Positions 1 to 17,668 of a DNA stretch of 64,000 nucleotides are shown here, one piece after another. A model generated the notes under the pieces. That model worked only from the letters and a program-made list of their open reading frames with translations, did not search any database and had not been told where the DNA came from. The stretch lies in the NCBI GenBank assembly GCA_000002435.2, contig CM018792.1; one strand, 5' to 3'. Made by a program: the position numbers and the translations under genes. Each line of letters starts with the position of its first letter. The stretch's first letter is position 1. This DNA comes from Giardia intestinalis. Its lineage: Eukaryota.

Positions 1-1428
1 ACAGCCATCTATTCCCACATATGCCTTAGCAGCACTATCAGTGCCTGTTGATGTGCCTAGGGGGTTACTACATGCCAACACGGACTGCTGAGCATTGGTT
101 GCCCCCGGAACCAGGAAGTATCTATTGTTGGCTGCTTCTGTACAGACACCCTCCTTACTTGATGTCTTGCACATGAGGCTACCTGGTTCTGTATTAACCT
201 TGTAACAACCATTCATATACATAAAGTACCCTGTAGTACAAGACTCACAGACATGGTTGTTACAAGTATTACTTTGAGCCTCACTAGCACAGAGACCATC
301 TATAGGATACTTACTGCTATCCCCACAATAGGAACAGTAATGATGCTCTACTCCATCATTGTCGATCACTATAGCATCGCAGGCCCCTGCTGTCCCACCA
401 CACGCAGTATCATCTTCACAGGCCTTTGTACATGTGACCCCAGTTGAAGGTTCTCCACTGGGTCTGTAGTTCACCTTGCATTTTGTGCACTTAAATGTGC
501 CACTATTTGTGCACTCGGCACACCCCTCGATGCCACCTTTGGTTGTGTCACTACATGAGATGCACTCACCAGAGGAGCTATCCTTCAAGAAGTACCCTTG
601 CTTACATGTCAGGCACTTACTCGGATCTTCCTTCTTGGAGCATGTCGCACAGCCTGGAGCGCACGGATCGCATGTAAAGCCCCCGCTTCTGTTCTCGATG
701 TATCCCTCCAGGCATTCTGTGCAGGCTGGATTGGCACTCGCTGTCTTCGTGCAAGCCTTACAGCCAGCAATGCCTTTGTTCTTTTGTTCTGAATCCGACG
801 CTGCGGGATCACTGCACAAACGACACACGTTGTCCTCGGTCATAAAGAGACCGTTATCAGCTCCTTGACACCCGGCGTAGTTCTTCGCCACGCAGGTCGA
901 GGTTCCATCAAGGGTCGTCCTGGGGATCTTGGTTCCATCATCGCCACACTTACTGCACTTCGGCTTCTTGGTAGTCGAATCAACTTCACACTGGGTACAG
1001 CTGGGATCTATCGTACTACATTCCTTGCACGTTCTGGTAGCTTCGTCAGTATAGTGTGTGCCTGTGCATGAGCCAGCTACGACACAATCAGTCCCCTTCA
1101 GGTACTTCCCCGCTACGCAGAGGGTGCATGCATTCTGACCGGTTCCACTACACGTCTCGCAGTCGGTATGACATTTGACACATGCACCGTTACCATCTTT
1201 ATAGTACCCTGCTTGACACTCTGTACACGTGGCAGCTCCTGGACTACCACTTGGTTCCGTGCACTTGAGGCAGTTAGCCACTCCTTTGTTCTCATTCGCT
1301 CCCGTGGCATCATGGCACAGGATGCACTCCCCACCAGGGGTCACCTTCTCTGCCCTGTTCTGGAATATGTACTGACTATCTGTATTACAAGCAGTGCACA
1401 GTCCATTACTGGCCTTTGTACATATCAC
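1..1428 (-). CDS. Partial Giardia variant-specific surface protein (VSP) cassette. Its 5' end is inside the window at ~1428, beginning GTG-ATA-TGT = VICTKAS. The 3' part runs off the window start. It is a near-identical copy of 9323..10750.
   Basis: Translations of the overlapping ORFs in 1..1494 are identical to those of 9323..10816 (constant offset 9322). The protein is CXXC-rich and VSP-like. No ATG or signal peptide lies at its 5' end. Confidence 0.8.
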   Translation of the reverse strand, partial: MICTKASNGLCTACNTDSQYIFQNRAEKVTPGGECILCHDATGANENKGVANCLKCTEPSGSPGAATCTECQAGYYKDGNGACVKCHTDCETCSGTGQNACTLCVAGKYLKGTDCVVAGSCTGTHYTDEATRTCKECSTIDPSCTQCEVDSTTKKPKCSKCGDDGTKIPRTTLDGTSTCVAKNYAGCQGADNGLFMTEDNVCRLCSDPAASDSEQKNKGIAGCKACTKTASANPACTECLEGYIENRSGGFTCDPCAPGCATCSKKEDPSKCLTCKQGYFLKDSSSGECISCSDTTKGGIEGCAECTNSGTFKCTKCKVNYRPSGEPSTGVTCTKACEDDTACGGTAGACDAIVIDNDGVEHHYCSYCGDSSKYPIDGLCASEAQSNTCNNHVCESCTTGYFMYMNGCYKVNTEPGSLMCKTSSKEGVCTEAANNRYFLVPGATNAQQSVLACSNPLGTSTGTDSAAKAYVGIDGC

Positions 1429-1495
1429 ACTCCACTATCACACTATCACCCTCTATTACCCATTATCACACATTGTATAGCATTCACTACCTAAG
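1429..1495 (-). repeat. VSP inter-cassette spacer. It holds the extended poly(A) signal of the upstream unit (gene-strand TGA CTTAGGTAGTGAATGCTATACAATG) and then degenerate ~10-nt GTGATAGTG-like repeats.
   Basis: Read directly from the sequence. It is identical to spacer 10751..10817. AGTGAAT matches the Giardia AGTRAAY poly(A) consensus. Confidence 0.75.
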
Positions 1496-3229
1496 TCACG
1501 CCTTCCCCCTGCACACGAACCACCAGCAGAGGAAGCCCACGAGGCCCCCCACGACAGCGACCACAGCCACGGAGATCCCCGCGATGGCCCCCGCGGAGAG
1601 CCCGCTCCTGTTGGCGCCAGAGGACACACACTTACCATTGTCTAGACTGAAGCCACTGTTGCACTCCCCACATATATTATCCATCACACAGCTCTTACAA
1701 CCACCCACAGAGCACAGGACACACCCACTGCCGTCCCTGTTGGGCTTCCTATCACTGTCACAGGAGGTACAGACAGCGGGGGTCATACCAGCTGTTGTTA
1801 GAGCTGTCGGGGCTGTGCACTGGGAGCAGCCATCTACCCCCACATATGCCTTAGCAGTATTACCAGTGCCTGTCAGTGTGCCAAGGGGGTTACTACAAGC
1901 CAACACAGACTGATCAGTGTTGGATGCACCAGGCACTACGAAGTACCTATTGTTGGCTGCTTCTGTGCAGATCCCAGTATTACCTGCTGTCTTGCACATG
2001 AAGCTACCAGGAGCCTTCTGAGTGCTATAACAGCCACCCATATATAAGAAATATCCTGTAGTACAAGACTCACAGACATGGTTGTTACAAGTATTACTTT
2101 GAGCCTCACTAGCACAGAGACCATCTATAGGATACTTACTGCTATCCCCACAGTATGAACAATAGTGCTTTGTGGTGCCCTGATCATCTATTATCATGGC
2201 ATCACAGGCGCCAGAGGTACCACCGCAAGCCGTTGTATCCTCGCAGGTCTTTGTACATGTGACCCCAGTTGAAGGGGTACCGTTTTGCTTGTAGTTGGGC
2301 TTACAGGAGTTGCAGGTCAACGAGCCAGAGAAGGTGCACGTTGCACATCCATCGATGCCCCCCTGTGCATTATCACAAGCAACGCACTCACCAGTAGGAC
2401 CACTGCCTTTCATGAAGAATCCAGGCTTGCATTTAGTACACTGATTATTGCCAGTTTGAGTGCAGGTGGCACAATTATCACCACAGGCTGCGCATGTAAC
2501 CGTACCACTACCACTACTGTAGTATCCAGCTAAGCACTCTGAGCAGGTTGGATTGGCACTTGCTGTCTTCGTGCAAGCCTTACAGCCAGCAATGCCTTTG
2601 TTCTTTGGGTCTGATCCGCTGGTATCGCTGCACAAGACACACGCAGCATCACCATCTGCCTTGAAGTGATCAGCATCCTCGCAGCCAGAGCTTATATCGA
2701 CGCATGTCGTGGTGCCATCGATGGCCGTCTTCACCTTCTTATTGTTATTACAGGCGGTGCACTGGGGCTTACTGACAGTCGCATTGTACTTACAGGTAGT
2801 ACATGCTTGATCTATCGTACTGCATTCCTTGCACGTTCCAGACTCTGGGTCTGGATAAACGGTGCTCGTGCATTGATCACTAGTTACGCAAGTCTTATCA
2901 CCCTTCAAGTACTTCCCCTCTGGACACGATGTGCACTGGGCCGCCGATGTCTCACAGGTCAGACAAGTACCATCACACTTGCTACATGCCTGAAAGTCCT
3001 TGTAGTACCCTGCTTGACAGGCAGTACACGTGGCTGCCCCCTTATTACTATCTGACTTGGTGCATGTGGCGCAGTTAGCCACCCCCGTATACCCATCTGC
3101 TCCCGTGGCATCATGACAGAGTATGCACTCCCTTCCCTTCTCTGGTGCTGTAGCAGGGTTCTGGAATACGTACTTGTTATCTGTCTTACAAGCAGTGCAC
3201 AGTCCATTACTGGCTGCTGTGCATATCAC
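1496..3229 (-). CDS. VSP cassette (577 codons). It has the ...CRGKA C-terminus and a TM helix. It lacks an ATG start and a signal peptide: the first codon is GTG and stop codons lie upstream.
   Basis: The ORF is CXXC-rich, has a GGCY motif, and ends ...AIAGISVAVVAVVGGLVGFLCWWFVCRGKA*. I read codon 3227..3229 as cac, i.e. GTG on the coding strand. The in-frame upstream reading is TAG-TGG-GTG. Confidence 0.85.
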   Translation of the reverse strand: MICTAASNGLCTACKTDNKYVFQNPATAPEKGRECILCHDATGADGYTGVANCATCTKSDSNKGAATCTACQAGYYKDFQACSKCDGTCLTCETSAAQCTSCPEGKYLKGDKTCVTSDQCTSTVYPDPESGTCKECSTIDQACTTCKYNATVSKPQCTACNNNKKVKTAIDGTTTCVDISSGCEDADHFKADGDAACVLCSDTSGSDPKNKGIAGCKACTKTASANPTCSECLAGYYSSGSGTVTCAACGDNCATCTQTGNNQCTKCKPGFFMKGSGPTGECVACDNAQGGIDGCATCTFSGSLTCNSCKPNYKQNGTPSTGVTCTKTCEDTTACGGTSGACDAMIIDDQGTTKHYCSYCGDSSKYPIDGLCASEAQSNTCNNHVCESCTTGYFLYMGGCYSTQKAPGSFMCKTAGNTGICTEAANNRYFVVPGASNTDQSVLACSNPLGTLTGTGNTAKAYVGVDGCSQCTAPTALTTAGMTPAVCTSCDSDRKPNRDGSGCVLCSVGGCKSCVMDNICGECNSGFSLDNGKCVSSGANRSGLSAGAIAGISVAVVAVVGGLVGFLCWWFVCRGKA

Positions 3230-3265
3230 CCACTATCACACATTGTACAGCATTCACTACCCAAG
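3230..3265 (-). repeat. VSP inter-cassette spacer: poly(A) signal CTTGGGTAGTGAATGCTGTACAATG plus a short GTGATAGTG-like repeat.
   Basis: Seen in the sequence. It is homologous to the other spacers. Confidence 0.7.
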
Positions 3266-5032
3266 TCACGCCTTCCCCCTGCACACGAACCACCAGCAGA
3301 GGAAGCCCACGAGGCCCCCCACGACAGCGACCACAGCGACGGAGATCCCCGCGATGGCCCCCGTGGAGAGCCCGCTCCTGTTGGTACTCATAGACACACA
3401 GGAGGTCCCACTGCTGTCTAGACTGAAGCCACTGTTGCACTCCCCACACACATCATCCACCACACAGCTCTTGCAATCACCCACAGAGCACAGCACACAC
3501 CCGGTGCCATCCTTGTTGGGCTTCTTATCACTGTCACAGGAGGTGCATGTAGCGGCAGTCATACCACCATCAGACAGAGCTGTTGGGGCCGTGCATGCTG
3601 AGCAGTTGAGTACCCCAACGTATGCCTTAGCATTGTCTTGAGTACCTATTAGTGTGCCTAATGGGTTACCACATGCTAGTACAGACTGCTGAGCATTGGT
3701 TGCCTCTGGGACTACGAAGTATCTATTGTTGGCCGCTTCTGTGCATATCCCAGTATTACCTGCTGTCTTGCACATGAAGCTACCAGGAGCCTTCTGAGTG
3801 CTATAACAGCCACCCATGTATAGGAAGTAGTTGTTGGTGCACTGTGTACATACACCATTAGCACAAGTATTCCCAGCCTTTTGAGCCTCACTAGCACAGA
3901 GACCATCTATAGGAGCTTGTGAACTATCTCCACAATAGGAACAGTAGTGCTTTGTGGTGCCCTGATCATCTATTACGATGGCATCACAAGAGCCAGCTGT
4001 CCCCCCACAAGCCGTGGGGTCCTCGCAGGTCTTCTCTGTGCATGTATAGTTGTCTGAGGTTCCAGCGGGCTTCCTGTTAGGCTTGCACTTTGTGCACTTG
4101 AGAGGTCCTGTAGACTCCTTTGTGCACTCGGCACACCCATCGATGCCCCCCTGTGCATTATCACAAGCAACGCACTCACCAGTAGGACCATTGCCTTTCA
4201 TGAAGAACCCAGGCTTGCATGTATCACACTTATCATTGCCAGTTTGAGTGCAGGTGGCACAGTTAGCACCTGGACAAGCGGTGCATGTAACCGTACCACT
4301 ACCACTACTGTAGTATCCATCGAGGCACTCCGAGCAGGTCGGCGGTGTCGCCGAGTCCTTGGTACACTTCTTACACCCGGCAATGCCCTGGTAATTTGGA
4401 TCGGCTCCAGCTGAAACGGTACTGCATAAAACACATGTTTTGTCCTCCTTCATAAATAGGGCCTCGTCAGCGCCTTTACATCCAGCGTAGTCTTTTGTCA
4501 CGCACGTCGAGGTCCCATCAAGGGCCGTCCTGGGGATCTTACTGTTATCACAAGCTGTGCACTTCGGCTTCTTGGTAGTCGAATCAACCTCACACTGGGT
4601 ACATGCTTGATCTATCGTGTTGCAAGGAAGGCACTTCCCCGACTCCGGGTCAGCATAAGTGTTTCCAGTGCATCCATTATTATTCACGCATGACTTGTCA
4701 GTCTTCAGGTACTTCCCCTCTGGACACGATGTACACTGATTCGGACCACTTCCATCGCAGGTCAGACAAGACTGATCACACTGCATACATACCAGAGAGT
4801 CCTTGTAGTATCCATCTTGGCAGGTATCACACGTGGCAGCCCCTGGACTATTAGCTGGTGCCGTGCACTTGAGGCAATTAGCCACTCCCTTGTTCTCATT
4901 CGCTCCCGTGGCATCATGGCACAGGATGCACTCATTACCAGGGGTCACTGTCGTAGCCTTGTTCTGGAATATGTACTGGTTATCTACCTTACAAGCAGTG
5001 CACACTCCATCACTGGCTGCTGTGCATATCAC
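3266..5032 (-). CDS. VSP cassette (588 codons) ending CRGKA. It has no ATG or signal peptide and starts GTG-ATA-TGC = VICTAAS.
   Basis: Same architecture as 1496..3229. I read codon 5030..5032 as cac (GTG). Confidence 0.85.
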   Translation of the reverse strand: MICTAASDGVCTACKVDNQYIFQNKATTVTPGNECILCHDATGANENKGVANCLKCTAPANSPGAATCDTCQDGYYKDSLVCMQCDQSCLTCDGSGPNQCTSCPEGKYLKTDKSCVNNNGCTGNTYADPESGKCLPCNTIDQACTQCEVDSTTKKPKCTACDNSKIPRTALDGTSTCVTKDYAGCKGADEALFMKEDKTCVLCSTVSAGADPNYQGIAGCKKCTKDSATPPTCSECLDGYYSSGSGTVTCTACPGANCATCTQTGNDKCDTCKPGFFMKGNGPTGECVACDNAQGGIDGCAECTKESTGPLKCTKCKPNRKPAGTSDNYTCTEKTCEDPTACGGTAGSCDAIVIDDQGTTKHYCSYCGDSSQAPIDGLCASEAQKAGNTCANGVCTQCTNNYFLYMGGCYSTQKAPGSFMCKTAGNTGICTEAANNRYFVVPEATNAQQSVLACGNPLGTLIGTQDNAKAYVGVLNCSACTAPTALSDGGMTAATCTSCDSDKKPNKDGTGCVLCSVGDCKSCVVDDVCGECNSGFSLDSSGTSCVSMSTNRSGLSTGAIAGISVAVVAVVGGLVGFLCWWFVCRGKA

Positions 5033-5099
5033 ACTCCACTATCACACATTATCACACTATCACCTTCTATCACACATTGTACAGCATTCACTACCTAAG
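5033..5099 (-). repeat. VSP inter-cassette spacer: poly(A) signal CTTAGGTAGTGAATGCTGTACAATG plus about four degenerate decamer repeats (cactatcaca / cattatcaca on the plus strand).
   Basis: Seen in the sequence. Confidence 0.7.
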
Positions 5100-7070
5100 T
5101 CACGCCTTCCCCCTGCACACGAACCACCAGCAGAGGAAGCCCACGAGGCCCCCCACGACAGCGATGACAGCCACGGAGATCCCTGCTATGGCACCAGTAC
5201 TGAGGCCGCTTCTGTTGCCCCCGCTGGGCTTGGTGGACACGCACGCCTCACCCTCCAGCCTGTAGTCGTCCCCACACTGGCCGCACTTGTTCTCCTCGCT
5301 GCACCTGACGCACCCGTCGATACTGCAGGCGATGCACTGGGAGCCGTCCAGGCTGGGCCTCTGGTCTTTACTGGTACAGCCCTCGCACTTATCGCCTGCT
5401 CCACAGTGCGAACATCCACTAACGGTACATGCGAAGCACCCGCTCCCAGCCAGGTTGGGCTTGTTGTTGCCGCTACACGCTGTGCACGTGGCGGGGGCCA
5501 TGCCAGGAGCCTCTAGCTGTGTCGGGGCTGTACATGCTGAGCAGCCATCTACTCCCACATATGCCTTAGCAGTATCACCAGTGCCTGTCAGTGTGCCTAG
5601 GGGGTTGCTACAAGCCAACACGGACTGATCAGTGTTGGATGCCCCTGGGACCAGGAAGTACTTATTACTTGCTGCCTCTGTGCATATCCCATTACTACTT
5701 GATGCCTTGCACATGAAGCTACCTGGTTCTTGACCAACCTTATAACAGCCTCCCATATATAAGAAGTACCCTTGAGCACACTGTGTACATGTATGACTGT
5801 CACAGGTATTAGTTCCTTTCTTATTATTATCACTAGTACATATACCATCAATAGGGAACTTATTAGCCTCTCCACAGTAAGAACAATAGTGCTTTGTGGT
5901 GCCCTGATCATCTATTATCATGGCATCACAGGCGCCAGAGGTACCACCGCAAGCCGTTGTATCCTCGCAGGTCTTTGTACATGTGACCCCAGTTGAAGGG
6001 GTACCGTTTTGCTTGTAGTTGGGCTTACAGGAGTTGCAGGTCAACGAGCCAGAGAAGGTGCACGTTGCACATCCATCGATGCCCCCCTGTGCATTATCAC
6101 AAGCAACGCACTCACCAGTAGGACCATTGCCTTTCATGAAGAACCCAGGCTTGCATGTATCACACTTATCATTGCCAGTTTGAGTGCAGGTGGCACAGTT
6201 AGCACCTGGACAAGCGGTGCATGTAACCGTACCACTACCACTACTGTAGTATCCATCGAGGCACTCCGAGCAGGTCGGCGGTGTCGCCGAGTCCTTGGTA
6301 CACTTCTTACACCCGGCAATGCCCTGGTAATTTGGATCGGCTCCAGCTGAAACGGTACTGCATAAAACACATGTTTTGTCCTCCTTCATAAATAGGGCCT
6401 CGTCAGCGCCTTTACATCCAGCGTAGTCTTTTGTCACGCACGTCGAGGTCCCATCAAGGGCCGTCCTGGGGATCTTACTGTTATCACAAGCTGTGCACTT
6501 CGGCTTCTTGGTAGTCGAATCAACCTCACACTGGGTACATGCTTGATCTATCGTGTTGCAAGGAAGGCACTTCCCCGACTCCGGGTCAGCATAAGTGTTT
6601 CCAGTGCATCCATTATTATTCACGCATGACTTGTCAGTCTTCAGGTACTTCCCCTCTGGACACGATGTGCAATGATTCGGACCACTTCCATCGCAGGTCA
6701 GACAGGACGGATCACACTTCTCACATGCATCACCCTTCTTAATGTATCCATCTTGGCAGACAGTGCATGTGGCCGGTCCGCTAGTGCCCGTGTGGGAGCA
6801 TTCTGAGCATCCAGCGACTCCCATGACCCCGTTTCTATCTATAGTATCGGAGCACAAGATGCACTCACTACCCTTCTCTGATGGTGTAACTGGGTTCTTG
6901 AACAGGCCGTTAGCTGTATTACAAGCAGTGCACAGTCCTCCCTCAGCCTTTGTGCATATCTCACTGCCAGGGTGTGCATCCTTGTTGTAGCACCCGCCCA
7001 TGAAGAGGAGTCTCATACTATCACTATCACCCCCACACCACATAGCACTATCACTATCACTGTACAGCAT
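5100..7070 (-). CDS. VSP cassette (656 codons) ending CRGKA. Its apparent ATG is the ATG embedded in the upstream unit's poly(A) signal (AGTGAATGCTG). Its N-terminal extension translates the spacer repeats (MLYSDSDSAMWCGGDSDSM...) and then a partial GGCY module. There is no signal peptide.
   Basis: The translation MLYSDSDS... corresponds to the GTGATAGTG repeats read in frame. SEICTKAEGGLCTAC aligns with the start point of the other cassettes. Confidence 0.8.
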   Translation of the reverse strand: MLYSDSDSAMWCGGDSDSMRLLFMGGCYNKDAHPGSEICTKAEGGLCTACNTANGLFKNPVTPSEKGSECILCSDTIDRNGVMGVAGCSECSHTGTSGPATCTVCQDGYIKKGDACEKCDPSCLTCDGSGPNHCTSCPEGKYLKTDKSCVNNNGCTGNTYADPESGKCLPCNTIDQACTQCEVDSTTKKPKCTACDNSKIPRTALDGTSTCVTKDYAGCKGADEALFMKEDKTCVLCSTVSAGADPNYQGIAGCKKCTKDSATPPTCSECLDGYYSSGSGTVTCTACPGANCATCTQTGNDKCDTCKPGFFMKGNGPTGECVACDNAQGGIDGCATCTFSGSLTCNSCKPNYKQNGTPSTGVTCTKTCEDTTACGGTSGACDAMIIDDQGTTKHYCSYCGEANKFPIDGICTSDNNKKGTNTCDSHTCTQCAQGYFLYMGGCYKVGQEPGSFMCKASSSNGICTEAASNKYFLVPGASNTDQSVLACSNPLGTLTGTGDTAKAYVGVDGCSACTAPTQLEAPGMAPATCTACSGNNKPNLAGSGCFACTVSGCSHCGAGDKCEGCTSKDQRPSLDGSQCIACSIDGCVRCSEENKCGQCGDDYRLEGEACVSTKPSGGNRSGLSTGAIAGISVAVIAVVGGLVGFLCWWFVCRGKA

Positions 7071-7082
7071 TCACTACCTAAG
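7071..7082 (-). repeat. Minimal 12-nt spacer between the stop of unit 7083..8870 and the apparent ATG of unit 5100..7070. It is part of the conserved poly(A)-signal block.
   Basis: Seen in the sequence. My own base counting is off by one around here, so I used the track coordinates. Confidence 0.5.
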
Positions 7083-8870
7083 TCACGCCTTCCCCCTGCA
7101 CAGGAACCACCAGCAGAGGAAGCCCACGAGGCCCCCCACGACAGCGACCACGGCGACGGCAATGCCCGCGATGGCGCCCGTGGAGAGCCCGCTCCTGTTG
7201 GTGCTCGTAGACACACAGGAGGTCCCACTGCTGTCAGGGCTGTATCCACTGTTGCACACACAGACAGAGTTATCATCAGTGGAGTTGCTGGGGCAGCCAT
7301 CCACGCATGACTTCCTCCCAGGGCTCACCTTCTTACCACTACTACACACCTCGCACATGTCATCCCTGTTGCAGTGGGAGCATCCACTAATGGCACATGA
7401 GAAGCACCCACTGCCGTCCCTGTTGGGCTTCCTATCACTGTCACAGGAGGTACACACAGCAGCAGCCATACCACCCTCAGTCAGAGCTGTTGGGGCTGTG
7501 CACTGTGAGCAGCCATCCACCCCCACGTATGCCTTAGCAGTATCACCAGTGCCTGTCAGTGTGCCTAGGGGGTTGCTACAAGCCAACACGGACTGATCAG
7601 TGTTGGATGCCCCTGGGACCAGGAAGTACTTATTACTTGCTGCCTCTGTGCATATCCCATTACTACTTGATGCCTTGCACATGAAGCTACCTGGTTCTTG
7701 ACCAACCTTATAACAGCCTCCCATATATAAGAAGTACCCTTGAGCACACTGTGTACATGTATGACTGTTACAAGTATTACCTTTCTTATCAGTAGCACAG
7801 ATGCCATCAATTGGTACCTTAGTACTCTCCCCACAGTATGAGCAATAGTGAAGCTCCTTTCCATCAGCACCGATCACTATGGCATCACAAGAGCCAGCTG
7901 TCCCCCCGCATGCAGTCTCATCTTCACAGGTCTTTGTACACGTATAGTCATCCCCTGCATCTCCATTAAGCTGTTTCTTATAGTTAGGCTTACAGTCAGT
8001 ACATTTGAATCCACCACTGTTAGAGCATGCACTGCACCCATCGCGGCCACCATTTGCTGTATCACTACATGAGATGCACTCACCAGAGGAGCTATCCTTC
8101 AAGAAGTACCCTTGCTTGCAGGTCGTGCATTGGTCTTTTGTATCCTTAGCACAGGTGGCACAGTTCTCACCACAGGCTGTGCATGTAGCGGTATTACCAC
8201 TTGCACTATTGTAATATCCATCGAGGCACTTTGTACATGTAGTTTTAGAGGAGCAGGTATCACAACCTAGAATCCCACCATTTTTAGTATCACCACATGG
8301 AACACAAGCTTTTGGAGATTGTTCAAGGAAGTGCGTATTGCCACTTGTGCACTCTGCCTCCGCAACACACGTCGCTGACCCATCGGGGTTCACCTTAAGA
8401 AGCAGGTTTCCTCCACTATTACACCCAGTGCACACAGGCTTCTGAAGAGTGTCGCTGTATGCACACGTAGCACATTCATTGACACTTGTGTCCGTGCAGG
8501 CCTTGCATTGGCCTGTTTTTGGGTCTGCATACTTACCATTGTCACATTGATTAGCATCCACACACTTGTCAGCCTTCAGGAACTTCCCCTCAACGCAGGC
8601 GGTACACTGAGTCGGAGTATCAGCTGAGCAGGCAGAGCAGCCCTCTCCGCACTTCACACATGCACTGTCCTTCTTAACGAACCCATCTTGACAGGCAGTA
8701 CATGTGACAGGTCCTGCACTCTGTGGTGCCTGACACTGTGCGCAGTTAGCCACCCCCGTATATCCATCTGCTCCCTTGATATCATGACAGAGGATGCACT
8801 CACTACCCTTCTCTGGTGTTGCAGCAGGGTTCTTGAACAGGCCGTTATCTGCCTTACAAGTAGTGCACAC
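7083..8870 (-). CDS. VSP cassette (595 codons) ending CRGKA. It has no ATG or signal peptide. The stop-to-stop frame begins TAG-TGG-AGT-GAG-ATA = *WSEICTKAEGGVCTTCK (to ~8903).
   Basis: CXXC-rich VSP-like protein. I read codon 8868..8870 as cac (GTG). A stop codon lies at ~8904..8906 upstream. Confidence 0.85.
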   Translation of the reverse strand: MCTTCKADNGLFKNPAATPEKGSECILCHDIKGADGYTGVANCAQCQAPQSAGPVTCTACQDGFVKKDSACVKCGEGCSACSADTPTQCTACVEGKFLKADKCVDANQCDNGKYADPKTGQCKACTDTSVNECATCAYSDTLQKPVCTGCNSGGNLLLKVNPDGSATCVAEAECTSGNTHFLEQSPKACVPCGDTKNGGILGCDTCSSKTTCTKCLDGYYNSASGNTATCTACGENCATCAKDTKDQCTTCKQGYFLKDSSSGECISCSDTANGGRDGCSACSNSGGFKCTDCKPNYKKQLNGDAGDDYTCTKTCEDETACGGTAGSCDAIVIGADGKELHYCSYCGESTKVPIDGICATDKKGNTCNSHTCTQCAQGYFLYMGGCYKVGQEPGSFMCKASSSNGICTEAASNKYFLVPGASNTDQSVLACSNPLGTLTGTGDTAKAYVGVDGCSQCTAPTALTEGGMAAAVCTSCDSDRKPNRDGSGCFSCAISGCSHCNRDDMCEVCSSGKKVSPGRKSCVDGCPSNSTDDNSVCVCNSGYSPDSSGTSCVSTSTNRSGLSTGAIAGIAVAVVAVVGGLVGFLCWWFLCRGKA

Positions 8871-8992
8871 TCCTCCCTCAGCCTTTGTACATATCTCACT
8901 CCACTATCATACTATCACACACTATCACCCATTATCACCCTCTATCACACATTATCACCCATTATCATCACTCATAGCATTCACTACCTAAG
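8871..8992 (-). repeat. Longest VSP inter-cassette spacer (~120 nt). It holds the poly(A) signal CTTAGGTAGTGAATGCTATGAG and about eight degenerate decamer repeats (cattatcacc / ctctatcaca / cactatcata on the plus strand).
   Basis: Seen in the sequence. Confidence 0.75.
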
Positions 8993-10750
8993 TCACGCCT
9001 TCCCTCTACACACGAACCACCAGCAGAGGAAGCCCACGAGGCCCCCCACGACAGCGACCACAGCCACGGAGATCCCCGCGATGGCCCCCGCGGAGAGCCC
9101 GCTCCTGTTGGCGCCAGAGGACACACACTTACCATTGTCTAGACTGAAGCCACTGTTGCACTCCCCACACACACCGTCCACCACACAGCTCTTGCAGTTG
9201 GTGTCAGAGCATACTACACACCCACTGCCATCCTTGTTGGGCTTTTTATCACTGTCACAGGAGGTGCACACAGCGGGGGTCATACCACCATCAGACAGAC
9301 CTGCTGGGGCTGTACATGCTGAACAGCCATCTATTCCCACATATGCCTTAGCAGCACTATCAGTGCCTGTTGATGTGCCTAGGGGGTTACTACATGCCAA
9401 CACGGACTGCTGAGCATTGGTTGCCCCCGGAACCAGGAAGTATCTATTGTTGGCTGCTTCTGTACAGACACCCTCCTTACTTGATGTCTTGCACATGAGG
9501 CTACCTGGTTCTGTATTAACCTTGTAACAACCATTCATATACATAAAGTACCCTGTAGTACAAGACTCACAGACATGGTTGTTACAAGTATTACTTTGAG
9601 CCTCACTAGCACAGAGACCATCTATAGGATACTTACTGCTATCCCCACAATAGGAACAGTAATGATGCTCTACTCCATCATTGTCGATCACTATAGCATC
9701 GCAGGCCCCTGCTGTCCCACCACACGCAGTATCATCTTCACAGGCCTTTGTACATGTGACCCCAGTTGAAGGTTCTCCACTGGGTCTGTAGTTCACCTTG
9801 CATTTTGTGCACTTAAATGTGCCACTATTTGTGCACTCGGCACACCCCTCGATGCCACCTTTGGTTGTGTCACTACATGAGATGCACTCACCAGAGGAGC
9901 TATCCTTCAAGAAGTACCCTTGCTTACATGTCAGGCACTTACTCGGATCTTCCTTCTTGGAGCATGTCGCACAGCCTGGAGCGCACGGATCGCATGTAAA
10001 GCCCCCGCTTCTGTTCTCGATGTATCCCTCCAGGCATTCTGTGCAGGCTGGATTGGCACTCGCTGTCTTCGTGCAAGCCTTACAGCCAGCAATGCCTTTG
10101 TTCTTTTGTTCTGAATCCGACGCTGCGGGATCACTGCACAAACGACACACGTTGTCCTCGGTCATAAAGAGACCGTTATCAGCTCCTTGACACCCGGCGT
10201 AGTTCTTCGCCACGCAGGTCGAGGTTCCATCAAGGGTCGTCCTGGGGATCTTGGTTCCATCATCGCCACACTTACTGCACTTCGGCTTCTTGGTAGTCGA
10301 ATCAACTTCACACTGGGTACAGCTGGGATCTATCGTACTACATTCCTTGCACGTTCTGGTAGCTTCGTCAGTATAGTGTGTGCCTGTGCATGAGCCAGCT
10401 ACGACACAATCAGTCCCCTTCAGGTACTTCCCCGCTACGCAGAGGGTGCATGCATTCTGACCGGTTCCACTACACGTCTCGCAGTCGGTATGACATTTGA
10501 CACATGCACCGTTACCATCTTTATAGTACCCTGCTTGACACTCTGTACACGTGGCAGCTCCTGGACTACCACTTGGTTCCGTGCACTTGAGGCAGTTAGC
10601 CACTCCTTTGTTCTCATTCGCTCCCGTGGCATCATGGCACAGGATGCACTCCCCACCAGGGGTCACCTTCTCTGCCCTGTTCTGGAATATGTACTGACTA
10701 TCTGTATTACAAGCAGTGCACAGTCCATTACTGGCCTTTGTACATATCAC
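8993..10750 (-). CDS. VSP cassette (585 codons) ending CRGKA. It has no ATG or signal peptide and reads *WS-VICTKASNGLCTAC.
   Basis: I read codon 10748..10750 as cac (GTG). An in-frame stop lies at ~10757..10759. Its 5' 1428 nt is duplicated at 1..1428. Confidence 0.85.
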   Translation of the reverse strand: MICTKASNGLCTACNTDSQYIFQNRAEKVTPGGECILCHDATGANENKGVANCLKCTEPSGSPGAATCTECQAGYYKDGNGACVKCHTDCETCSGTGQNACTLCVAGKYLKGTDCVVAGSCTGTHYTDEATRTCKECSTIDPSCTQCEVDSTTKKPKCSKCGDDGTKIPRTTLDGTSTCVAKNYAGCQGADNGLFMTEDNVCRLCSDPAASDSEQKNKGIAGCKACTKTASANPACTECLEGYIENRSGGFTCDPCAPGCATCSKKEDPSKCLTCKQGYFLKDSSSGECISCSDTTKGGIEGCAECTNSGTFKCTKCKVNYRPSGEPSTGVTCTKACEDDTACGGTAGACDAIVIDNDGVEHHYCSYCGDSSKYPIDGLCASEAQSNTCNNHVCESCTTGYFMYMNGCYKVNTEPGSLMCKTSSKEGVCTEAANNRYFLVPGATNAQQSVLACSNPLGTSTGTDSAAKAYVGIDGCSACTAPAGLSDGGMTPAVCTSCDSDKKPNKDGSGCVVCSDTNCKSCVVDGVCGECNSGFSLDNGKCVSSGANRSGLSAGAIAGISVAVVAVVGGLVGFLCWWFVCRGKA

Positions 10751-10817
10751 ACTCCACTATCACACTATCACCCTCTATTACCCATTATCACACATTGTAT
10801 AGCATTCACTACCTAAG
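10751..10817 (-). repeat. VSP inter-cassette spacer, identical to 1429..1495.
   Basis: Seen in the sequence. Confidence 0.75.
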
Positions 10818-12887
10818 TCACGCCTTCCCCCTGCACACGAACCACCAGCAGAGGAAGCCCACGAGGCCCCCCACGACAGCGACCACAGCCACGGAGATCC
10901 CCGCGATGGCCCCCGCGGAGAGCCCGCTCCTGTTGGCGCCAGAGGACACACACTTACCATTGTCTAGACTGAAGCCACTGTTGCACTCCCCACATATATT
11001 ATCCATCACACAGCTCTTACAACCACCCACAGAGCACAGGACACACCCACTGCCGTCCCTGTTGGGCTTCTTACTACTGTCACAGGAGGTACAGACAGCG
11101 GGGGCCATACCACCATCAGACAGAGCTGCTGGGGCTGTACACTGGGAGCAGCCCTCTACTCCCACATATGCCTTAGCAGTATCACCAGTGCCTGTCAGTG
11201 TGCCTAGGGGGTTGCTACAAGCCAACACAGACTGATCAGTGTTGGATGCACCAGGCACTACGAAGTACCTATTGTTGGCTGCTTCTGTGCAGATCCCAGT
11301 ATTACCTGCTGTCTTGCACATGAAGCTACCAGGAGCCTTCTGAGTGCTATAACAGCCACCCATGTATAGGAAGTAGTTGTTGGTGCACTGTGTACATACA
11401 CCATTAGCACAAGTATTCCCAGCCTTTTGAGCCTCACTAGCACAGAGACCATCTATAGGAGCTTGTGAACTATCTCCACAATAGGAACAGTAGTGCTTTG
11501 TGGTGCCCTGATCATCTATTACGATGGCATCACAAGAGCCAGCTGTCCCCCCACAAGCCGTGGGGTCCTCGCAGGTCTTCTCTGTGCATGTATAGTTGTC
11601 TGAGGTTCCAGCGGGCTTCCTGTTAGGCTTGCACTTTGTGCACTTGAGAGGTCCTGTAGACTCCTTTGTGCACTCGGCACACCCATCGATGCCCCCCTGT
11701 GCATTATCACAAGCAACGCACTCACCAGTAGGACCATTGCCTTTCATGAAGAATCCAGGCTTGCATTTAGTGCACTTATCATTGCCAGCTTGAGTGCAGG
11801 TGGCACAGTTGGCACCACAGGCTTCACATGTAACCGTACCACCATTTCCACTATTGTAATATCCGTCGAGGCACTCCGAGCAGGTCGGCTTGGCTCCGTT
11901 CTTCTTACATGTTTTACACCCAGGCGTCCCTTTATTAGCTTCTAAACTTTCACTATCATCACTACACAATATGCACTTGGTGCTACCATCATTTAGAAAG
12001 TGGGATCCGTCAACGTTACTTGTTGCGCACCCATTTGCATCGACACAGGTTGTCGTGCCATCGATGGCCGTCTTCACCATCTTCTGACCACCGCAGTTAG
12101 TGCACTTCGGCTTCTTGGTAGTCGAATCAACCTCACACTGGGTACATGCTTGATCTATCGTGTTGCAAGGAAGGCACTTCCCCGACTCCGGGTCAGCATA
12201 AGTGTTTCCAGTGCATCCATTATTATTCACGCATGACTTGTCACCCTTCAAGTACTTCCCCTCTGGACACGATGTGCACTGGGCCGCCGATGTCTCACAG
12301 GTCAGACAAGTACCATCACACTTGCTACATGCCTGAAAGTCCTTGTAGTACCCTGCTTGACAGGCAGTACACGTGGCTGCCCCCTTATTACTGTCTGACT
12401 TGGTACACTGTGCGCAGTTAGCCACCCCCGTATATCCATCTGCTCCATTGATATCGGAGCACAGTATGCACTCACTACCCTTCTCTGGTGTTGCAGCAGG
12501 GTTCTTGAACAGGCCGTTAGCTGTCTTACACTCAGTGCACAGTCCTCCCTCAGCCTTTGTGCATATCTCGCTGCCGGGCCCGTCGGTTGTCTTGTAGCAC
12601 CCGCCCATGAAGAGGAAGTACCCGTCGCCGCACTTCTCGCAGGTTGCTGTCATCTTGTCAAGGGCAGCCCCGCCCGCTTTGGTGCACCCGGCTGCCGCGG
12701 CCTGGGGGGAGCCGAAGGGTCGGCAGAAGCCGTCGACCGGGACGCCCCCGGTCTTGCACTCGGTGCAGATCTCGGCTGACCCGACCGTCTCGCACTTGCC
12801 GGTCTGGCAGGTCGCGGCGTGGTCTCCGTCTGGCTGGCAGGCCGCCATGAGCGCGCTCGCTACGAACAGGGGTATCAGTTGGAACAT
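10818..12887 (-). CDS. Complete VSP gene (~689 aa). It has an ATG in an Inr-like context (CTCTAATGTTCC) and a signal peptide (MFQLIPLFVASALMAACQ). It has VSP repeats, a TM helix and a CRGKA tail. It is the head of the array.
   Basis: The track ORF 10818..13076 starts at a GTG. The first in-frame ATG, at 12887..12885, is followed by a hydrophobic leader. Everything downstream of the leader is VSP-like. Confidence 0.85.
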   Translation of the reverse strand: MFQLIPLFVASALMAACQPDGDHAATCQTGKCETVGSAEICTECKTGGVPVDGFCRPFGSPQAAAAGCTKAGGAALDKMTATCEKCGDGYFLFMGGCYKTTDGPGSEICTKAEGGLCTECKTANGLFKNPAATPEKGSECILCSDINGADGYTGVANCAQCTKSDSNKGAATCTACQAGYYKDFQACSKCDGTCLTCETSAAQCTSCPEGKYLKGDKSCVNNNGCTGNTYADPESGKCLPCNTIDQACTQCEVDSTTKKPKCTNCGGQKMVKTAIDGTTTCVDANGCATSNVDGSHFLNDGSTKCILCSDDSESLEANKGTPGCKTCKKNGAKPTCSECLDGYYNSGNGGTVTCEACGANCATCTQAGNDKCTKCKPGFFMKGNGPTGECVACDNAQGGIDGCAECTKESTGPLKCTKCKPNRKPAGTSDNYTCTEKTCEDPTACGGTAGSCDAIVIDDQGTTKHYCSYCGDSSQAPIDGLCASEAQKAGNTCANGVCTQCTNNYFLYMGGCYSTQKAPGSFMCKTAGNTGICTEAANNRYFVVPGASNTDQSVLACSNPLGTLTGTGDTAKAYVGVEGCSQCTAPAALSDGGMAPAVCTSCDSSKKPNRDGSGCVLCSVGGCKSCVMDNICGECNSGFSLDNGKCVSSGANRSGLSAGAIAGISVAVVAVVGGLVGFLCWWFVCRGKA

Positions 12888-12900
12888 TAGAGGGTCCCCT
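12880..12900 (-). promoter_or_regulatory. Initiator-like element around the VSP start codon (gene-strand GACCCTCTAATGTTCC, matching the Giardia VSP Inr PyAATGTT).
   Basis: Read directly from the sequence. The Inr consensus is established knowledge for Giardia VSP genes. Confidence 0.45.
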
Positions 12901-15675
12901 GCTGTGGCCTCTACCCCGTCTGTGGCTACCCAGCACGGCACACGGGGGGAGCGCTGTTCCACCCCTGCCTTGGAGGCCCCTGTCTCGACTCGGCCCACAG
13001 CACCAGAGCGTGGTGGTCTTCCACTCTTGGGCCCCGCACAGCCCGTCTCTGTGCCCAAGCGACTCACCCCAGGCACTCACACGACGGAGACCCCCGCGGC
13101 AGTGCTCCGGCAGGCGGGCTGCGCTGATGTCCGGCCCGGCGCAGAGCCCAGAAGGCTCAGAGGTCATGGCTCCTTGATGACTGCCATGTCGTTCTCCTCG
13201 CTCGGTTGACATGCACCCTGCTAGAAGGCTCCCACTTACTCGAGCTCATGCCCCCCTGTGGTGACTCTGCTCGACCATCAGCGAGGGTCCCGGTCCTCCT
13301 CCCAATAGGCCGGCCTCAGGTCCCCCGTGATCTGCCAGACCGGGCAGAGTGATCGCGGCGCCCGTCAGAGCCTGAGCCGACAGGCCCGCAGTGAAGTGCG
13401 CCTGGATCCACGGAGATCGTTCACTCCCCCAGTGGGCCGCAGCTTCCCCTGCCCTGCTGACAGTCCTCCAGCGAGGGCATGTCGTTGTGGGGCAGTCTTC
13501 TCGTCCTGCCGTGCACACAGGGCCCGACTGGTGACTTTCGGACAGTCCCGATGGTATGCCTGAAGCCCCGCCACGGCAGAGGGGGCAGCACACGGGGCGG
13601 CCCCTACGCTGCTACAGATTGCAATGGCAGCAGAGACCCCCTGCCCGAGAGGCCCGTGCATTGGCTGTGGCGGCCATCCACTCCATGCGGGCCCGGTGCG
13701 GCGCTCCTGGAGAGCCCTTGCCTCTGGTGGTGCTGACAGGGCTCCCGAGGGACCAAGGCGTCAGACGAGGGACGGGCCGAGCAGGACTCCCAGCCCACAT
13801 GCAGATGTCCCTGCCGTGTGCCCGGTCCTGTAGAGACCCGAGCCGCTGGAGGTGTCCCTCGGCATCCGGCCCCCTGCTGTGCCAGTCGGTGCAGGGGAGC
13901 AGCGTACAGGGCCCTCATGGGCAGTCTCCTCTCACAGACAGGGCACCAGGGGTCTCAGCAACCGACCGGCCGATGCAAGGGACAGGCTCTCCTGCCACGA
14001 CGGCGCTCTGCTGCTAGGAGGGTCTGGCGGACAAGCTATCAGCACACGCACTCTCCTGGGCCGCCTCGGGGCACTCCAGCGTGGCCAGCGGCTTGCGGAT
14101 CAGTCTGGTGTCCCGGAGCGTGTGAGGAAGATGAGGGGTTTACTCTGGGCTGCCGTCTTGTCGAGGGCAGTCCCGTGCATGAAGCTCTGAACTCATGTGA
14201 TGCCGGTCCAGAGGCACCTCTGACGAGAGCATTAACAAGAGAAGCGTTGAGTAGTCAATGGTCCATCCTGTAAGCAAGCTGCTAGGTGCGAAGGCATTGA
14301 ATCTGTGTGCGGTCGCATGGCCACACATCACGACCCACAACGTCATAGCGCACCGCATAGCTGGCACACCCCAAGGGTGTATGGAGACAGTAGACCAGTA
14401 GTTTAATGGATCAAGGCAGAGACTGTGCCACAAAGCGTGGAAAGACGGGTTCCACAGAAGCTGGTAAGCTACGATCACCAGTCTTCTATAATAGTGAGTG
14501 ATGTCAACAATCTCTTCCCGAAGGAGCTTACAGATCTATCTCTAATCAGCTAACTGGGGGATAAAGAAAAACAACTAGGGTCTACCGTGAGGCACCCTGC
14601 CACAGTTGATCATGGCAGCCACCGATGAATGCACTCCATTCCACAGAATAATAGACACCCGGAGTCCTTTCAATCTGATCGAGTCTAAGTCCACAGCAGA
14701 CCGCCCGGCCCGAGAGCCTACTGTTGCTGGGCGAGGGGCGTCAGTGGACCGTAGCCTTCCATAGACTGGGATAGGTGACCAGTGTCGGGGCTCGTCAACC
14801 ATGATGAATCGGCTGTGATCGGGTATTTCCCTGCCGCATAACTGGGACATGCAGAACAGCTCTGGGCAGAGCGAGAAATTGACTGGAGTGGCGGGGCTGA
14901 ATCCCTCGATTGATGCCAATCTCTGACTACGATATCGGGCGACTCATCGATCTTTTTAGCGATACTAGCCGAGAGTTACAGCTGTCTTTACTTAAGCTAT
15001 CTTTGCGCTTCACTATGCTGATGTTGCTTGTTGTACAGTAAGTCTGTGCTTGCTTAATCTAGATGCCTTTGCACAATAATACCGTAGATGCGCTTAACGA
15101 TTACCCATCAATGCAACTTTTTGCTGAGCTGATTGCATATTATAAAAGTCAATTGTGTCTAAGAAGCTAGCGCCTCAGTAAACCAAAGGAAGGCATATAC
15201 GATGTTAAAAAGTGCCTCTCTAACGTACAATTGACACCTTAATATTCTTCTGATTGTCAATGGCTATAAAGTGAATCTCGTCCGTAGTAAATTCTTAGAG
15301 GAGTTCACAGCTTCTTTGTTATAGCGGACTTGCACACAAATGCACCTCACTTGATGGTCAACACATTTCAATCAGATCAATCAAAAAAATTATTACAATT
15401 CTAGCCAAGTAAAAATCCAATCTTGAGTAAAGATTGAGTTCGATGGCGGCGTGGCAGTCTACATTATAACATCCCTAGGATTTACTGCTGAAAATTGCTG
15501 AGCAATGGCCAATGTGGATACAATTAGATCGTATTAAATAATTGCAATCACTTTAACTGTACATCGCTTGGGGCAGTAAGCAGTTCAGCAGTGCTGGTTT
15601 AGCTTTAGCAAACAAATAAGGTTTGGAAAGACGGTGACTTTATTTTGAATCGATGTTTTTAATAACTTTTATCCT

Positions 15676-16494
15676 ATGAGCGGGTACTGGACTGGAACTA
15701 CAAAGATACTGCTTCTGGTGGGGATTCCATGCATTATTACCACATATACGATAGCCGTTGTTCCACGCAGTCTCATTGGCGTTATTAACGTACTAAACTT
15801 GGAATATAGCTTCAGTTGGAAACTACACTTTTTCTATGAGTTTAGAGCATGGTTTGGAACAGTTATAGTGCTCTCTATTTTAGTTCTTTACTTCTTTGTG
15901 TCCCATTTGATGCTATGTTGCAGCTGCAGTAAAACTCGGAATGTGGTTGTCTATTGCTATCTAGCGTCAATTGGAACTGGGTATTGTGCAATTGTAGATC
16001 TATTTTCCTGCATAGTTACGCCATTTGTTAACCTCGAATCTGCCTATATTTCTTTATTACTCATAGGAGATCTATCCAAATACGCCACATTGAGTGTCGG
16101 GATTGCCTGGCTCTTTACTGTCACTGCAGGAGTACTTCTCCTAAATACCGAGTCAGCTTGCTTGCGAGCCCTTACGCCGACCATTGGCTCACTAATTTCA
16201 TTTGGACTTCCTTTATTCATCGTATTGATAAATGGTGTCGGGCACTACAATGTGTATACAACTCCACATTATATTATAGCCAGCTTTGTTCTAGCATTTC
16301 TAAGTCTGGTCTGCTATTTGCTCGCATATTTTGTGGAATTTCAAAAGACAAAGATTCTGAACAAGTATGATGTATTTGGTGGTCCTTCCACTTCGTTTGG
16401 GAGAACCCCGGCCTCCTCTACTACGATGCTAAGCACTGCCCACGATTCATCTACGTATCGAGGCTACTCAAATGATGCCTATTTGTATGCTTAG
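15676..16494 (+). CDS. Hypothetical multi-pass membrane protein (272 aa).
   Basis: The ORF has about seven hydrophobic segments. An AT-rich tract precedes it. I recognise no family. Confidence 0.5.
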   Translation: MSGYWTGTTKILLLVGIPCIITTYTIAVVPRSLIGVINVLNLEYSFSWKLHFFYEFRAWFGTVIVLSILVLYFFVSHLMLCCSCSKTRNVVVYCYLASIGTGYCAIVDLFSCIVTPFVNLESAYISLLLIGDLSKYATLSVGIAWLFTVTAGVLLLNTESACLRALTPTIGSLISFGLPLFIVLINGVGHYNVYTTPHYIIASFVLAFLSLVCYLLAYFVEFQKTKILNKYDVFGGPSTSFGRTPASSTTMLSTAHDSSTYRGYSNDAYLYA

Positions 16495-16747: not shown

Positions 16748-17668
16748 ATGCAGGTTCAGCAGAACCCAGAATTCCTCGGCTCGCAGCAAGTTACCGAAAG
16801 AACTCAGAGCCTCTTTCGCCCAGTTAATTCGATGAGTGATCCGCGTGTGGCGAAGGGCAGCACATGGGCTCGGGAAGCAGGCGGATCCAACTATGGCCGC
16901 TCCCTGGGGCTGACGAATACCAGGACTCGTGCACTTCAAAACGCTGCACGAACGGGTGTTAGCGACCTAATGAGCATGGTTCCAGAGAGACCGTCGCTGC
17001 CATCAATTCCTGTCCAAACTGCTCCCTACCTTGAGGCGTATCCAGATAAAATCGAAGAGGCTGGCGCCTGCACCCAGACAGACCCTATGCTTGAAATCAA
17101 GGAACCTGCCCCCTACGTTCCGCCGCCCCAGGGTATCGATGTGTCTACACAGATAGAAGAGGGCGATCTCTTTGACTTTGATAGAGAGGTTCAGCCGATC
17201 CTGGATGTGCTAGTCGGCTCTGTGCTGCAGCAAGCTCTCAGGGAATTTTCAGACGAAGAAGAGTTGCGATTGATTCGCATAGCCAGAGACAAGGTGCGGC
17301 AGCGCCGTGCTGCAGAGCTTCAGGAAGTCCGTCGCTTAGAGGAGGCAGAGCGTCGCAGAAGAGCCGAGATTGTCAAGCGCCAGGTTGAAGACCTCAGGAG
17401 AAAGGAGCTTGAGGAGGCCGTTGCCCGCAAGATGGCTGCCCAAACATTTGCCACAGCATATGCTGCTGAGTTGGAAAAGGATGCTGTGGACTCAATTGAA
17501 ACACGTGGCGGATTTATTTCGCCATTGGAGGCAGCAGTGACCGGCAGCTTCGTTCCGTACATCGTCTCTACCTCTATTACAAAAGCGAAGGCTAGGGGCC
17601 GCATTCATTCTATCTTGCGCTGCATCATAGAAGAGGCAGTCAGGACAGGACTCTCCATGGAAAGTTAA
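16748..17668 (+). CDS. Radial spoke protein 3 (RSP3)-like axonemal protein.
   Basis: GDLFDFDREVQPILDVLVGSVLQQAL...EEELRLIR...EVRRLEE matches the conserved RSP3 core (ELFDFDLEVKPVLEVLVGK...). Confidence 0.65.
   Translation: MQVQQNPEFLGSQQVTERTQSLFRPVNSMSDPRVAKGSTWAREAGGSNYGRSLGLTNTRTRALQNAARTGVSDLMSMVPERPSLPSIPVQTAPYLEAYPDKIEEAGACTQTDPMLEIKEPAPYVPPPQGIDVSTQIEEGDLFDFDREVQPILDVLVGSVLQQALREFSDEEELRLIRIARDKVRQRRAAELQEVRRLEEAERRRRAEIVKRQVEDLRRKELEEAVARKMAAQTFATAYAAELEKDAVDSIETRGGFISPLEAAVTGSFVPYIVSTSITKAKARGRIHSILRCIIEEAVRTGLSMES

Follow-up and report, generated by a model that had tools for sequence, protein, structure and literature searches.

On the minus strand, positions 1..12887 of a 64,000-nucleotide stretch of Giardia intestinalis DNA (contig CM018792.1 of the NCBI GenBank assembly GCA_000002435.2; the whole stretch is referred to as the window) form a linear array of seven head-to-tail reading frames for variant-specific surface proteins (VSPs), in which one intact head gene is followed by at least six start-less cassettes. 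The units of this array are very probably ancient paralogues that carry recent tracts of identity with switching partners, left by repeated short-tract conversion together with at least one unequal crossover or duplication, the cassettes forming an evolutionary reservoir of sequence. The tract pattern itself is far beyond what chance would produce.

The units, tracts and spacers described here all lie on the minus strand. The head gene, U6 (10818..12887; 689 amino acids), has an ATG, the signal peptide MFQLIPLFVASALMAAC, a CXXC-rich ectodomain, a transmembrane segment and a terminal CRGKA. It is followed by four 5′-truncated cassettes, namely U5 (8993..10750; 585 open codons, first in-frame ATG at codon 196, without a signal peptide), U4 (7083..8870; 595 codons, first in-frame ATG at codon 383), U2 (3266..5032; 588 codons, first in-frame ATG at codon 83) and U1 (1496..3229; 577 codons, first in-frame ATG at codon 273), and by U3 (5100..7070), a cassette with a longer 5′ end that retains LLFMGGCY. 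An additional cassette, U0 (1..1430), which was absent from the unit list of an earlier note made on this DNA, is cut at the window edge and is 100% identical to U5.

Within 1..13000, an alignment-free search returned 22 exact repeats of 60 nt or longer, all of them in register and on the same strand, and found none elsewhere in the window or on the opposite strand. Their lengths range from 62 to 596 nt, plus one of 1,748 nt with a period of 9,322 nt (1..1748 = 9323..11070), in which U0 and the tail of U1 equal U5 and the tail of U6; this repeat covers the whole of U0, the spacer and the last 250 coding nucleotides of U1, and ends abruptly at 1749/11071. The longest of the remaining tracts joins U2 to U3 over 596 nt (4137..4732 = 6073..6668), followed by tracts of 461 nt between U2 and U6 (3747..4207 = 11293..11753), 246 nt between U1 and U3 (2157..2402 = 5881..6126) and 241 nt between U3 and U4 (5560..5800 = 7528..7768), the last being an internal patch with flanks of 60–70% identity. 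A tract of 161 nt is common to U1, U5 and U6 (1512..1672 = 9009..9169 = 10834..10994), and U1 and U6 share two more, of 152 nt (2898..3049 = 12241..12392) and 149 nt (1893..2041 = 11215..11363). Two shorter patches are again common to three units: 144 nt in U2, U3 and U6 (4557..4700 = 6493..6636 = 12100..12243) and 98 nt in U0, U1 and U5 (230..327 = 2055..2152 = 9552..9649), the latter sitting in U1 between U3-like and U6/U2-like segments. The 152 and 144 nt tracts abut in the head gene, where the switch interval is only 3 nt.

Outside the tracts the same pairs of units are 45–75% identical, and the 98, 144, 241 and 246 nt tracts fall to approximately 55–70% identity on both flanks. Exact tracts of 50 nt or more that recur in another unit make up 55–59% of U1, U2, U3 and U6; for the head gene, the portion in exact tracts common with cassettes is approximately 59%, or about three quarters of its cassette-homologous part. 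The nearest partner of U1 changes along its length from U6 (100%) to none (∼70%), U3 (100%), U5 (100%), U6/U2 (100%) and again U6 (97–100%). Tracts that join two cassettes are as frequent as those that join a cassette to the head gene. The 144 nt patch of U6 is nested in the 596 nt tract common to U2 and U3, which suggests U6 as the recipient, a direction that is not claimed here since the nesting is not decisive.

The departure from chance was quantified with a Sawyer/GENECONV-style runs test written for purpose, using 893 polymorphic sites in 1,672 ungapped columns and 10,000 permutations of site order. The longest concordant runs comprised 342, 220, 125, 101, 99 and 93 sites, against a permutation maximum of 44 for any pair, and p < 1e-4 was obtained for 14 of the 15 pairs in pairwise comparison and for eight pairs globally. 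When the alignment was cut into non-overlapping 60 nt windows, with the universally conserved 3′ end excluded, 32 of 418 windows were fully identical, while evenly spread differences would give an expectation of 0.0003; identity over these windows is bimodal, with a distinct peak at 100%. In the divergent parts, codon analysis gave a synonymous divergence (dS) of 0.7–1.4 and a ratio of nonsynonymous to synonymous divergence (dN/dS) of about 0.3 for every pair. Inside the tracts there are no differences at all, synonymous sites included, and constraint at the protein level can therefore not explain them.

The earlier note had proposed that the units are mosaics shaped by repeated segmental exchange rather than by whole-gene duplication followed by divergence, and this proposal is well supported. 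Duplication followed by divergence is rejected because identity is bimodal, partners switch from segment to segment and synonymous sites are identical within tracts; a uniform decay of identity along the alignments was looked for, and what was found was clearly different, with exact tracts set in a divergent background of 50–75% identity. The switching of partners that had been noticed in the head gene at the protein level was recovered in the nucleotides as a succession of U1-like, U2/U3-like, U2-like and U1-like sequence. Two of the shared protein blocks then listed recur exactly, a 67-residue block (CATCTFSG...SYCG) in 1496..3229 and 5100..7070 and a 34-residue block (GDSSKYPIDG...TTGYF) in 1496..3229 and 8993..10750. 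A further block, assigned to 3266..5032, 5100..7070 and 10818..12887, occurs nowhere as it was typed, with CSSC where the sequence reads CTSC; 57 of its residues are exact in the first two units, and in the head gene, which reads KGDKSC and not KTDKSC, only the last 46 (KSCVNNN...KKPKC) are present. The last ∼75 codons and the 3′ flank had been described as identical among U1, U5 and U6. For U1 and U6 the identity extends beyond this and takes in the last 83 codons, the entire spacer and all of the unit that follows, but for U5 it is limited to 58 terminal residues (the 161 nt tract), the CRGKA codons of U5 differing synonymously from those of U1 and U6 and its flank diverging 17 nt past the stop codon.

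Two of the transitions fall in or at the edge of conserved stretches. The head gene passes from U1-identical to U2/U3-identical sequence at the end of a conserved stretch of approximately 45 nt encoding CTSCPEGKYLK, and in alignment columns 1167–1240 U6, U3, U2 and U1 are all identical and re-assort on the left and on the right. Homologous recombination between misaligned or paralogous units has very probably copied segments of 75–600 nt from unit to unit many times over, with exchanges beginning or finishing in short conserved stretches around the cysteine scaffold; such homology-dependent exchange, seeded in conserved islands of the scaffold, would give rise to the point-like transitions observed. 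Old divergent modules would thus be re-assorted on a fixed CXXC framework, yielding new combinations of ectodomain sequence, including in the only member that seems expressible, and the start-less cassettes would act as a reservoir of sequence for evolution of the repertoire on an evolutionary time scale.

More than one kind of event is likely to be involved. The short internal patches (98–246 nt, with ∼65% identity on both flanks) point to gene conversion in the strict sense, and patches that join non-adjacent units without co-duplication of their neighbours appear to bear the signature of short-tract gene conversion or of formally equivalent double crossovers. The 1,748 nt repeat seems better explained by unequal crossover or segmental duplication because it traverses a stop codon, a spacer and the whole next unit up to the window edge. 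One unequal crossover that paired the head gene with a downstream unit would leave exactly this, a hybrid unit and, directly after it, a duplicate of the following unit, and at least one such crossover or a segmental duplication would account for the 9.3 kb period; a crossover would also imply that the array runs on beyond the left side of the window, with further copies of U4, U3 and their successors. We conclude that both gene-conversion-type exchange and unequal crossover or duplication are recorded in the array. The 9,322 nt period also suggests a higher-order repeat and an array that continues past the left window edge.

Some of the exchange was probably ectopic, judging from identities with sequences outside the array. 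No unit in the window comes close to the head segment 11754..12099 (55–69% identity), which, as protein, is identical to residues 146–312 of another VSP entry of isolate WB, XP_001703902.1; residues 73–131 of U6 (59 amino acids) recur unchanged in a WB VSP encoded on another contig, of 1.49 Mb; and residues 196–523 of U5 are those of ‘VSP S6’.

The single-copy DNA flanking the array is 99.99–100% identical to two short-read assemblies and 98.8–99.0% identical to two others, a divergence of 1.0–1.2%. Together with the identity of the head protein to a WB entry, this places the window in WB-type assemblage A. Non-redundant tracts without a mismatch total approximately 3.8 kb, and at 1.1% divergence the chance of a 596 nt tract staying identical is only about 0.001. 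As these ∼3.8 kb are free of mismatches, the main exchange events are likely to be younger than the split from the more divergent assemblies, assuming similar rates. Tracts with 85–97% identity are also present (U6/U4, columns 345–497; U6/U1, columns 1650–1768), and therefore the exchange process reaches further back in time.

Unequal crossing-over alone, by which misaligned exchanges between sister chromatids or homologues would make hybrid units and duplicate or delete others with no non-reciprocal patches, is an improbable account of the whole pattern. The equality of 1..1748 and 9323..11070 does have the exact form of one unequal crossover, and the partners of the four units identical in columns 1167–1240 re-assort on either side as single crossovers would make them do. 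However, U1 switches partner at least five times within 1.7 kb and contains patches of 98–246 nt from the non-adjacent U5 and U3 whose neighbours were not co-duplicated, and crossovers with the VSP entries outside the array that have blocks in common with it would rearrange chromosomes. Functional constraint or uneven rates after ordinary duplication, with diversifying selection in the divergent parts, has next to no probability as a general explanation: the cysteine scaffold and the 3′ transmembrane/CRGKA region are indeed conserved in all units, and constraint may contribute to the 62–82 nt tracts at the 3′ end, but the columns that are identical in one pair even at synonymous sites are only 50–70% identical in other pairs, and the identical pair changes from block to block, which is impossible for a single tree with rate variation. 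For tracts of at least 98 nt, the synonymous identity and the shifting partners refute this explanation.

That the tracts and the 9.3 kb repeat do not exist in the cell, and are instead a consensus chimera of paralogous or allelic reads introduced by assembly or polishing, is very unlikely. Short-read assemblies do break at the edge of the locus, and the WB assembly was polished with Quiver and then corrected with 75 bp Illumina reads and shows more apparent allelic variation around VSPs (PMC7000408). Nevertheless, it was built from 200× PacBio data with a read N50 of 12.7 kb, which exceeds the 1.8 kb unit, six units in a row and the 9.3 kb period, and no misassemblies were detected (PMC7000408); polishing is unable to make boundaries between 100 and 55% identity; the frames are open across every junction; an older independent record of 677 amino acids, UPI000017B5CF, covers the head mosaic with two differences in 675 residues; and the blocks are present, differently combined, in Sanger-era WB proteins. 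It is also unlikely that the array is a programmed, high-rate cassette system in the style of Borrelia vlsE or trypanosome VSG, in which dedicated donors would rewrite the head gene unidirectionally during infection. Such a system would fit a single expressible gene placed beside promoter-less in-frame cassettes, the large part of that gene (∼59%) found in tracts common with cassettes and the preservation of open cassette frames, and the hypothesis has been raised before (PMC2996952). On the other hand, the tracts between cassettes are as common as those with the head and give no sign of direction, the head sequence recurs unchanged in the 2020 assembly and, bar two residues, in a record that is much older, AI isolates agree in where their VSPs lie (PMC11169602), and Giardia possesses over 130 intact VSP genes, each with a start of its own, and is able to switch between VSPs without known DNA change (PMC7000408; PMC2996952). 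It is likewise unlikely that the cassettes are a maintained donor library which still rewrites the head VSP, and possibly distant VSPs, during infections or culture; the ∼3.8 kb of mismatch-free tracts, the five open-frame cassettes with intact cysteine scaffolds and a head gene that is largely a patchwork of its own cassettes leave some room for the idea. If true, such a library would let Giardia diversify its antigens at the level of DNA as well, in addition to switching them epigenetically.

Several points weigh against the preferred reading of ancient paralogues repeatedly patched by exchange, with cassettes that serve as a reservoir. The five complete start-less units contain no stop codon or frameshift in approximately 2,900 codons, 67 of the 71 cysteine columns in the unit alignment are invariant, and dN/dS between cassettes is as low (about 0.3) as between cassettes and head. 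Such undecayed cassettes are unexpected for long-dead pseudogenes, and recombination alone does not explain them; recent origin, overwriting from intact genes or selection after transfer may be the reason. In zones of 90–99.5% identity the ratio of nonsynonymous to synonymous differences per site (pN/pS) is 0.46 between cassettes and 0.36 between head and cassettes, values which rest on ∼45–55 differences each and are contaminated by tract edges. The silence of the cassettes is itself deduced from missing signals, a single haplotype does not reveal whether sequence passed from the cassettes to the head or from the head to the cassettes, and conversion and unequal crossover predict alike for several tracts. 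Finally, the organism is tetraploid and a single assembled sequence underlies the whole analysis; a small residual doubt as to artefact persists, mainly regarding the 9.3 kb repeat. No orthologous array in other assemblies was on record in exact-protein look-ups with the head gene, U3 and the proteins P0121, P0005 and P0007. A look-up with the neighbouring 272-residue gene led to four short-read contigs, all of which end at 14,124–14,597, before the array; the P0003 locus (L005) proved to be a solitary VSP in an unrelated context, and scanning metagenomes for the stop/poly(A) junction returned no match.

The assignment of the locus to the VSP linear arrays is supported by profile, motif and layout. 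The head gene and U5 score 150.6 bits (E = 7e-44) and 134.1 bits, respectively, against the PF03302 profile, far above its curated cut-off of 31.4 bits, and a search of a large protein collection returned 324 homologues, the named ones being Giardia VSPs. Every unit of the array terminates with a hydrophobic segment and CRGKA-TGA, and a transmembrane segment with the tail ...GFLCWWF[VL]CRGKA-TGA closes all six complete units. The ectodomains contain many CXXC motifs, and GGCY is present in all units (as NGCY in U5). All of the traits that define a VSP linear array (Adam et al., 2010) were examined and found at this locus.

The U6 protein is 100% identical over its 689 residues to XP_037902103.1/KAE8304460.1, a VSP of G. 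intestinalis WB C6 on a 2.76 Mb contig. Its ATG is overlapped by the initiator TAATGTT (12883..12889, minus strand), an instance of the motif PyAatgTT as defined previously (PMC2996952), and this is the only PyAATGTT on the minus strand within 1..14000. A signal-peptide-like N-terminus (MFQLIPLFVASALMAAC) was recognized, by eye, in the head gene only. The criterion that separates VSPs from psi-VSPs is the presence of an N-terminal signal peptide and a proper start codon (PMC7000408); the head gene alone has both, and would thus be the sole expression-competent member. By the same criterion the units downstream are psi-VSPs because they have no proper start codon or signal peptide.

No in-frame ATG exists near the 5′ end of U1, U2, U4 or U5. 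The program that listed the open reading frames (ORFs) applied the bacterial genetic code, which is inapplicable to start codons of Giardia DNA, and gave these four units GTG ‘starts’; these are artefacts of that code, being the first sense codons after stop codons in the spacers, and were rejected because of the missing ATG. The downstream units pick up the reading frame partway through a VSP, at ...SEICT, corresponding to approximately codon 107 of the head gene, with the exception of U3, which picks up ∼16 codons earlier, at LLFMGGCY. The ATG of U3 sits inside the poly(A) signal of U4 and opens an ORF of 656 residues that begins MLYSDSDSAMWCGGDS, without a hydrophobic core or signal peptide. 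This translated junction also heads the 2007-era WB annotations P0002, P0008, P0042 and P0096, so the unit boundary is common to arrays elsewhere in the genome.

Each unit ends in TGA-CTTAGGTAGTGAATGCT with the poly(A) signal AGTGAA 8 nt past the stop codon, followed by variable GTGATA-like repeats. In the 67 nt U6/U5 spacer (10751..10817), CTTAGGTAGTGAATGCT (AGTGAA at 10805..10810) is followed by (GTGATAnn)n. The remaining spacers measure 122 nt (U5/U4, 8871..8992), 12 nt (U4/U3, 7071..7082), 67 nt (U3/U2, 5033..5099), 36 nt (U2/U1, 3230..3265) and 65 nt (U1/U0, 1431..1495). The spacer microsatellites resemble slippage products of the coding sequence AGTGAGATATGC (..SEIC..). Old WB annotations translate spacers of this kind as MLYSDSDS(DS)AMWCGGDS, and therefore such spacers also occur in other arrays of the genome.

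Upstream of the head gene, approximately 2.8 kb without a long ORF or Pfam match separates it from the next gene, at 15676. A block at ∼12,500..14,100, which takes in ∼125 codons at the start of the head gene and ∼1.25 kb upstream of it, contains 65–70% G+C, compared with ∼51% in the cassettes and ∼47% downstream. It gave neither a Pfam match, for the four ORFs of its upstream part, nor an Rfam match, and Rfam had no match over the whole window. Part of the block may recur elsewhere in the genome, as four independent short-read contigs end at 14,124–14,597. The solitary VSP of L005, which belongs to another Giardia assembly (ENA ERZ28528424), is 71% identical to the head gene and, at 9,960..10,010, has TTTCTACTGATACCCCTGTTCG where the window has TAATGTTCCAACTGATACCCCTGTTCG; owing to this replacement it is without the initiator and ATG, and its gene call starts from an internal Met. 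Its N-terminal module (10,001–10,200), homologous to that of the head gene, is likewise G+C-rich (72%).

At the unit junctions, long plus-strand ORFs of 165–241 residues overlap, in antisense, the 3′ end of one unit and the 5′ end of the unit that follows, and they recur with the array (1416..1913, 3123..3641, 4833..5516, 7000..7596, 8688..9413 and 10738..11235). They are most likely by-products of VSP codon usage. Antisense VSP RNA has been invoked in VSP silencing in Giardia, and these ORFs may be of interest for that reason. From 14,300 to 64,000 the window is densely packed with ordinary single-copy genes, including a radial spoke 3 homologue (16748..17668), a V-ATPase F subunit and a thymidine kinase, and no further frames ending in CRGKA were found there; on this side the array therefore adjoins housekeeping DNA and not a telomere.

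Over half of the vsp genes of the same isolate have been reported to lie in linear arrays with spacers of ∼60 bp, in which the first member often has an upstream noncoding region and PyAatgTT and none of the downstream members has an initiator (Adam et al., 2010; PMC2996952). Members of these arrays can share ‘long regions of 100% identity’, recombination among them was detected with GENECONV and DualBrothers, using only the 3′ 234–657 bp of selected clades, and a role as cassettes or a reservoir was proposed for them (PMC2996952). Arrays of psi-VSPs in G. intestinalis were also described by Xu et al. (2020; PMC7000408), and incomplete VSPs were again called a sequence reservoir in a 2022 preprint. 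Compared with the published linear arrays, the present one has the same organism, isolate, orientation and initiator pattern, and does not differ in kind. In G. muris, tandem pseudogenized VSPs similarly exchange sequence with intact VSPs, a process named recombination or segmental gene conversion by the authors (Xu et al., 2020; PMC7641422). Those arrays lie almost without exception next to telomeres, with the intact genes elsewhere and a CRGK tail (PMC7641422), whereas here an intact gene heads the array, housekeeping genes are found within 3 kb and the tail is CRGKA. Segmental exchange in VSP arrays is thus already known, for this genome (PMC2996952) as for G. muris (PMC7641422); as far as we could find, the unit-by-unit mosaic map and the 9.3 kb higher-order repeat of this array have no description in the literature.

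The layout described here resembles those of other antigen families, as silent, truncated cassettes adjoin an expressible gene, a likeness that holds at the level of sequence. At the vlsE locus of Borrelia burgdorferi an expressed gene stands beside contiguous promoter-less, start-less, in-frame cassettes, with conserved stretches framing the variable ones, and tens to hundreds of nucleotides are copied into the expressed gene in a unidirectional, programmed process that runs at a high rate during infection. Silent arrayed donors also give rise to antigen mosaics through segmental conversion of ves1 in Babesia bovis, at pilE/pilS in Neisseria and in the MSG family of Pneumocystis. Mosaic VSGs of Trypanosoma brucei are built from pseudogene arrays (PMC13233330), and the VSG, ves1, pilE/pilS and MSG systems have in common with the present array silent, often truncated arrayed copies that serve, or here would serve, as donors for segmental conversion. 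The protein families of vlsE and the VSPs are unrelated, and Giardia has many expressible VSPs. Because the 133–136 intact VSP genes of WB have their own starts (PMC7000408; bioRxiv 10.1101/2022.03.07.483299), a single dedicated expression site is not expected in Giardia.

The VSG, ves1, pilE and MSG systems need a dedicated expression site and DNA rearrangement in order to vary. For routine VSP switching in Giardia the accepted mechanism is an epigenetic or a post-transcriptional, RNA-based one, and no DNA rearrangement during switching is evident at this locus; the mosaics found here are read as evolutionary footprints. The array provides a clean, breakpoint-resolved example of segmental exchange and a defined locus at which its rate and direction could be measured, and it leaves the current picture unchanged. 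VSPs coat the Giardia trophozoite and are the antigens seen by the host, and the way in which the set of some 130 intact genes and 200 pseudo-VSP genes arises and is renewed is relevant to chronic infection and to vaccines based on VSPs.

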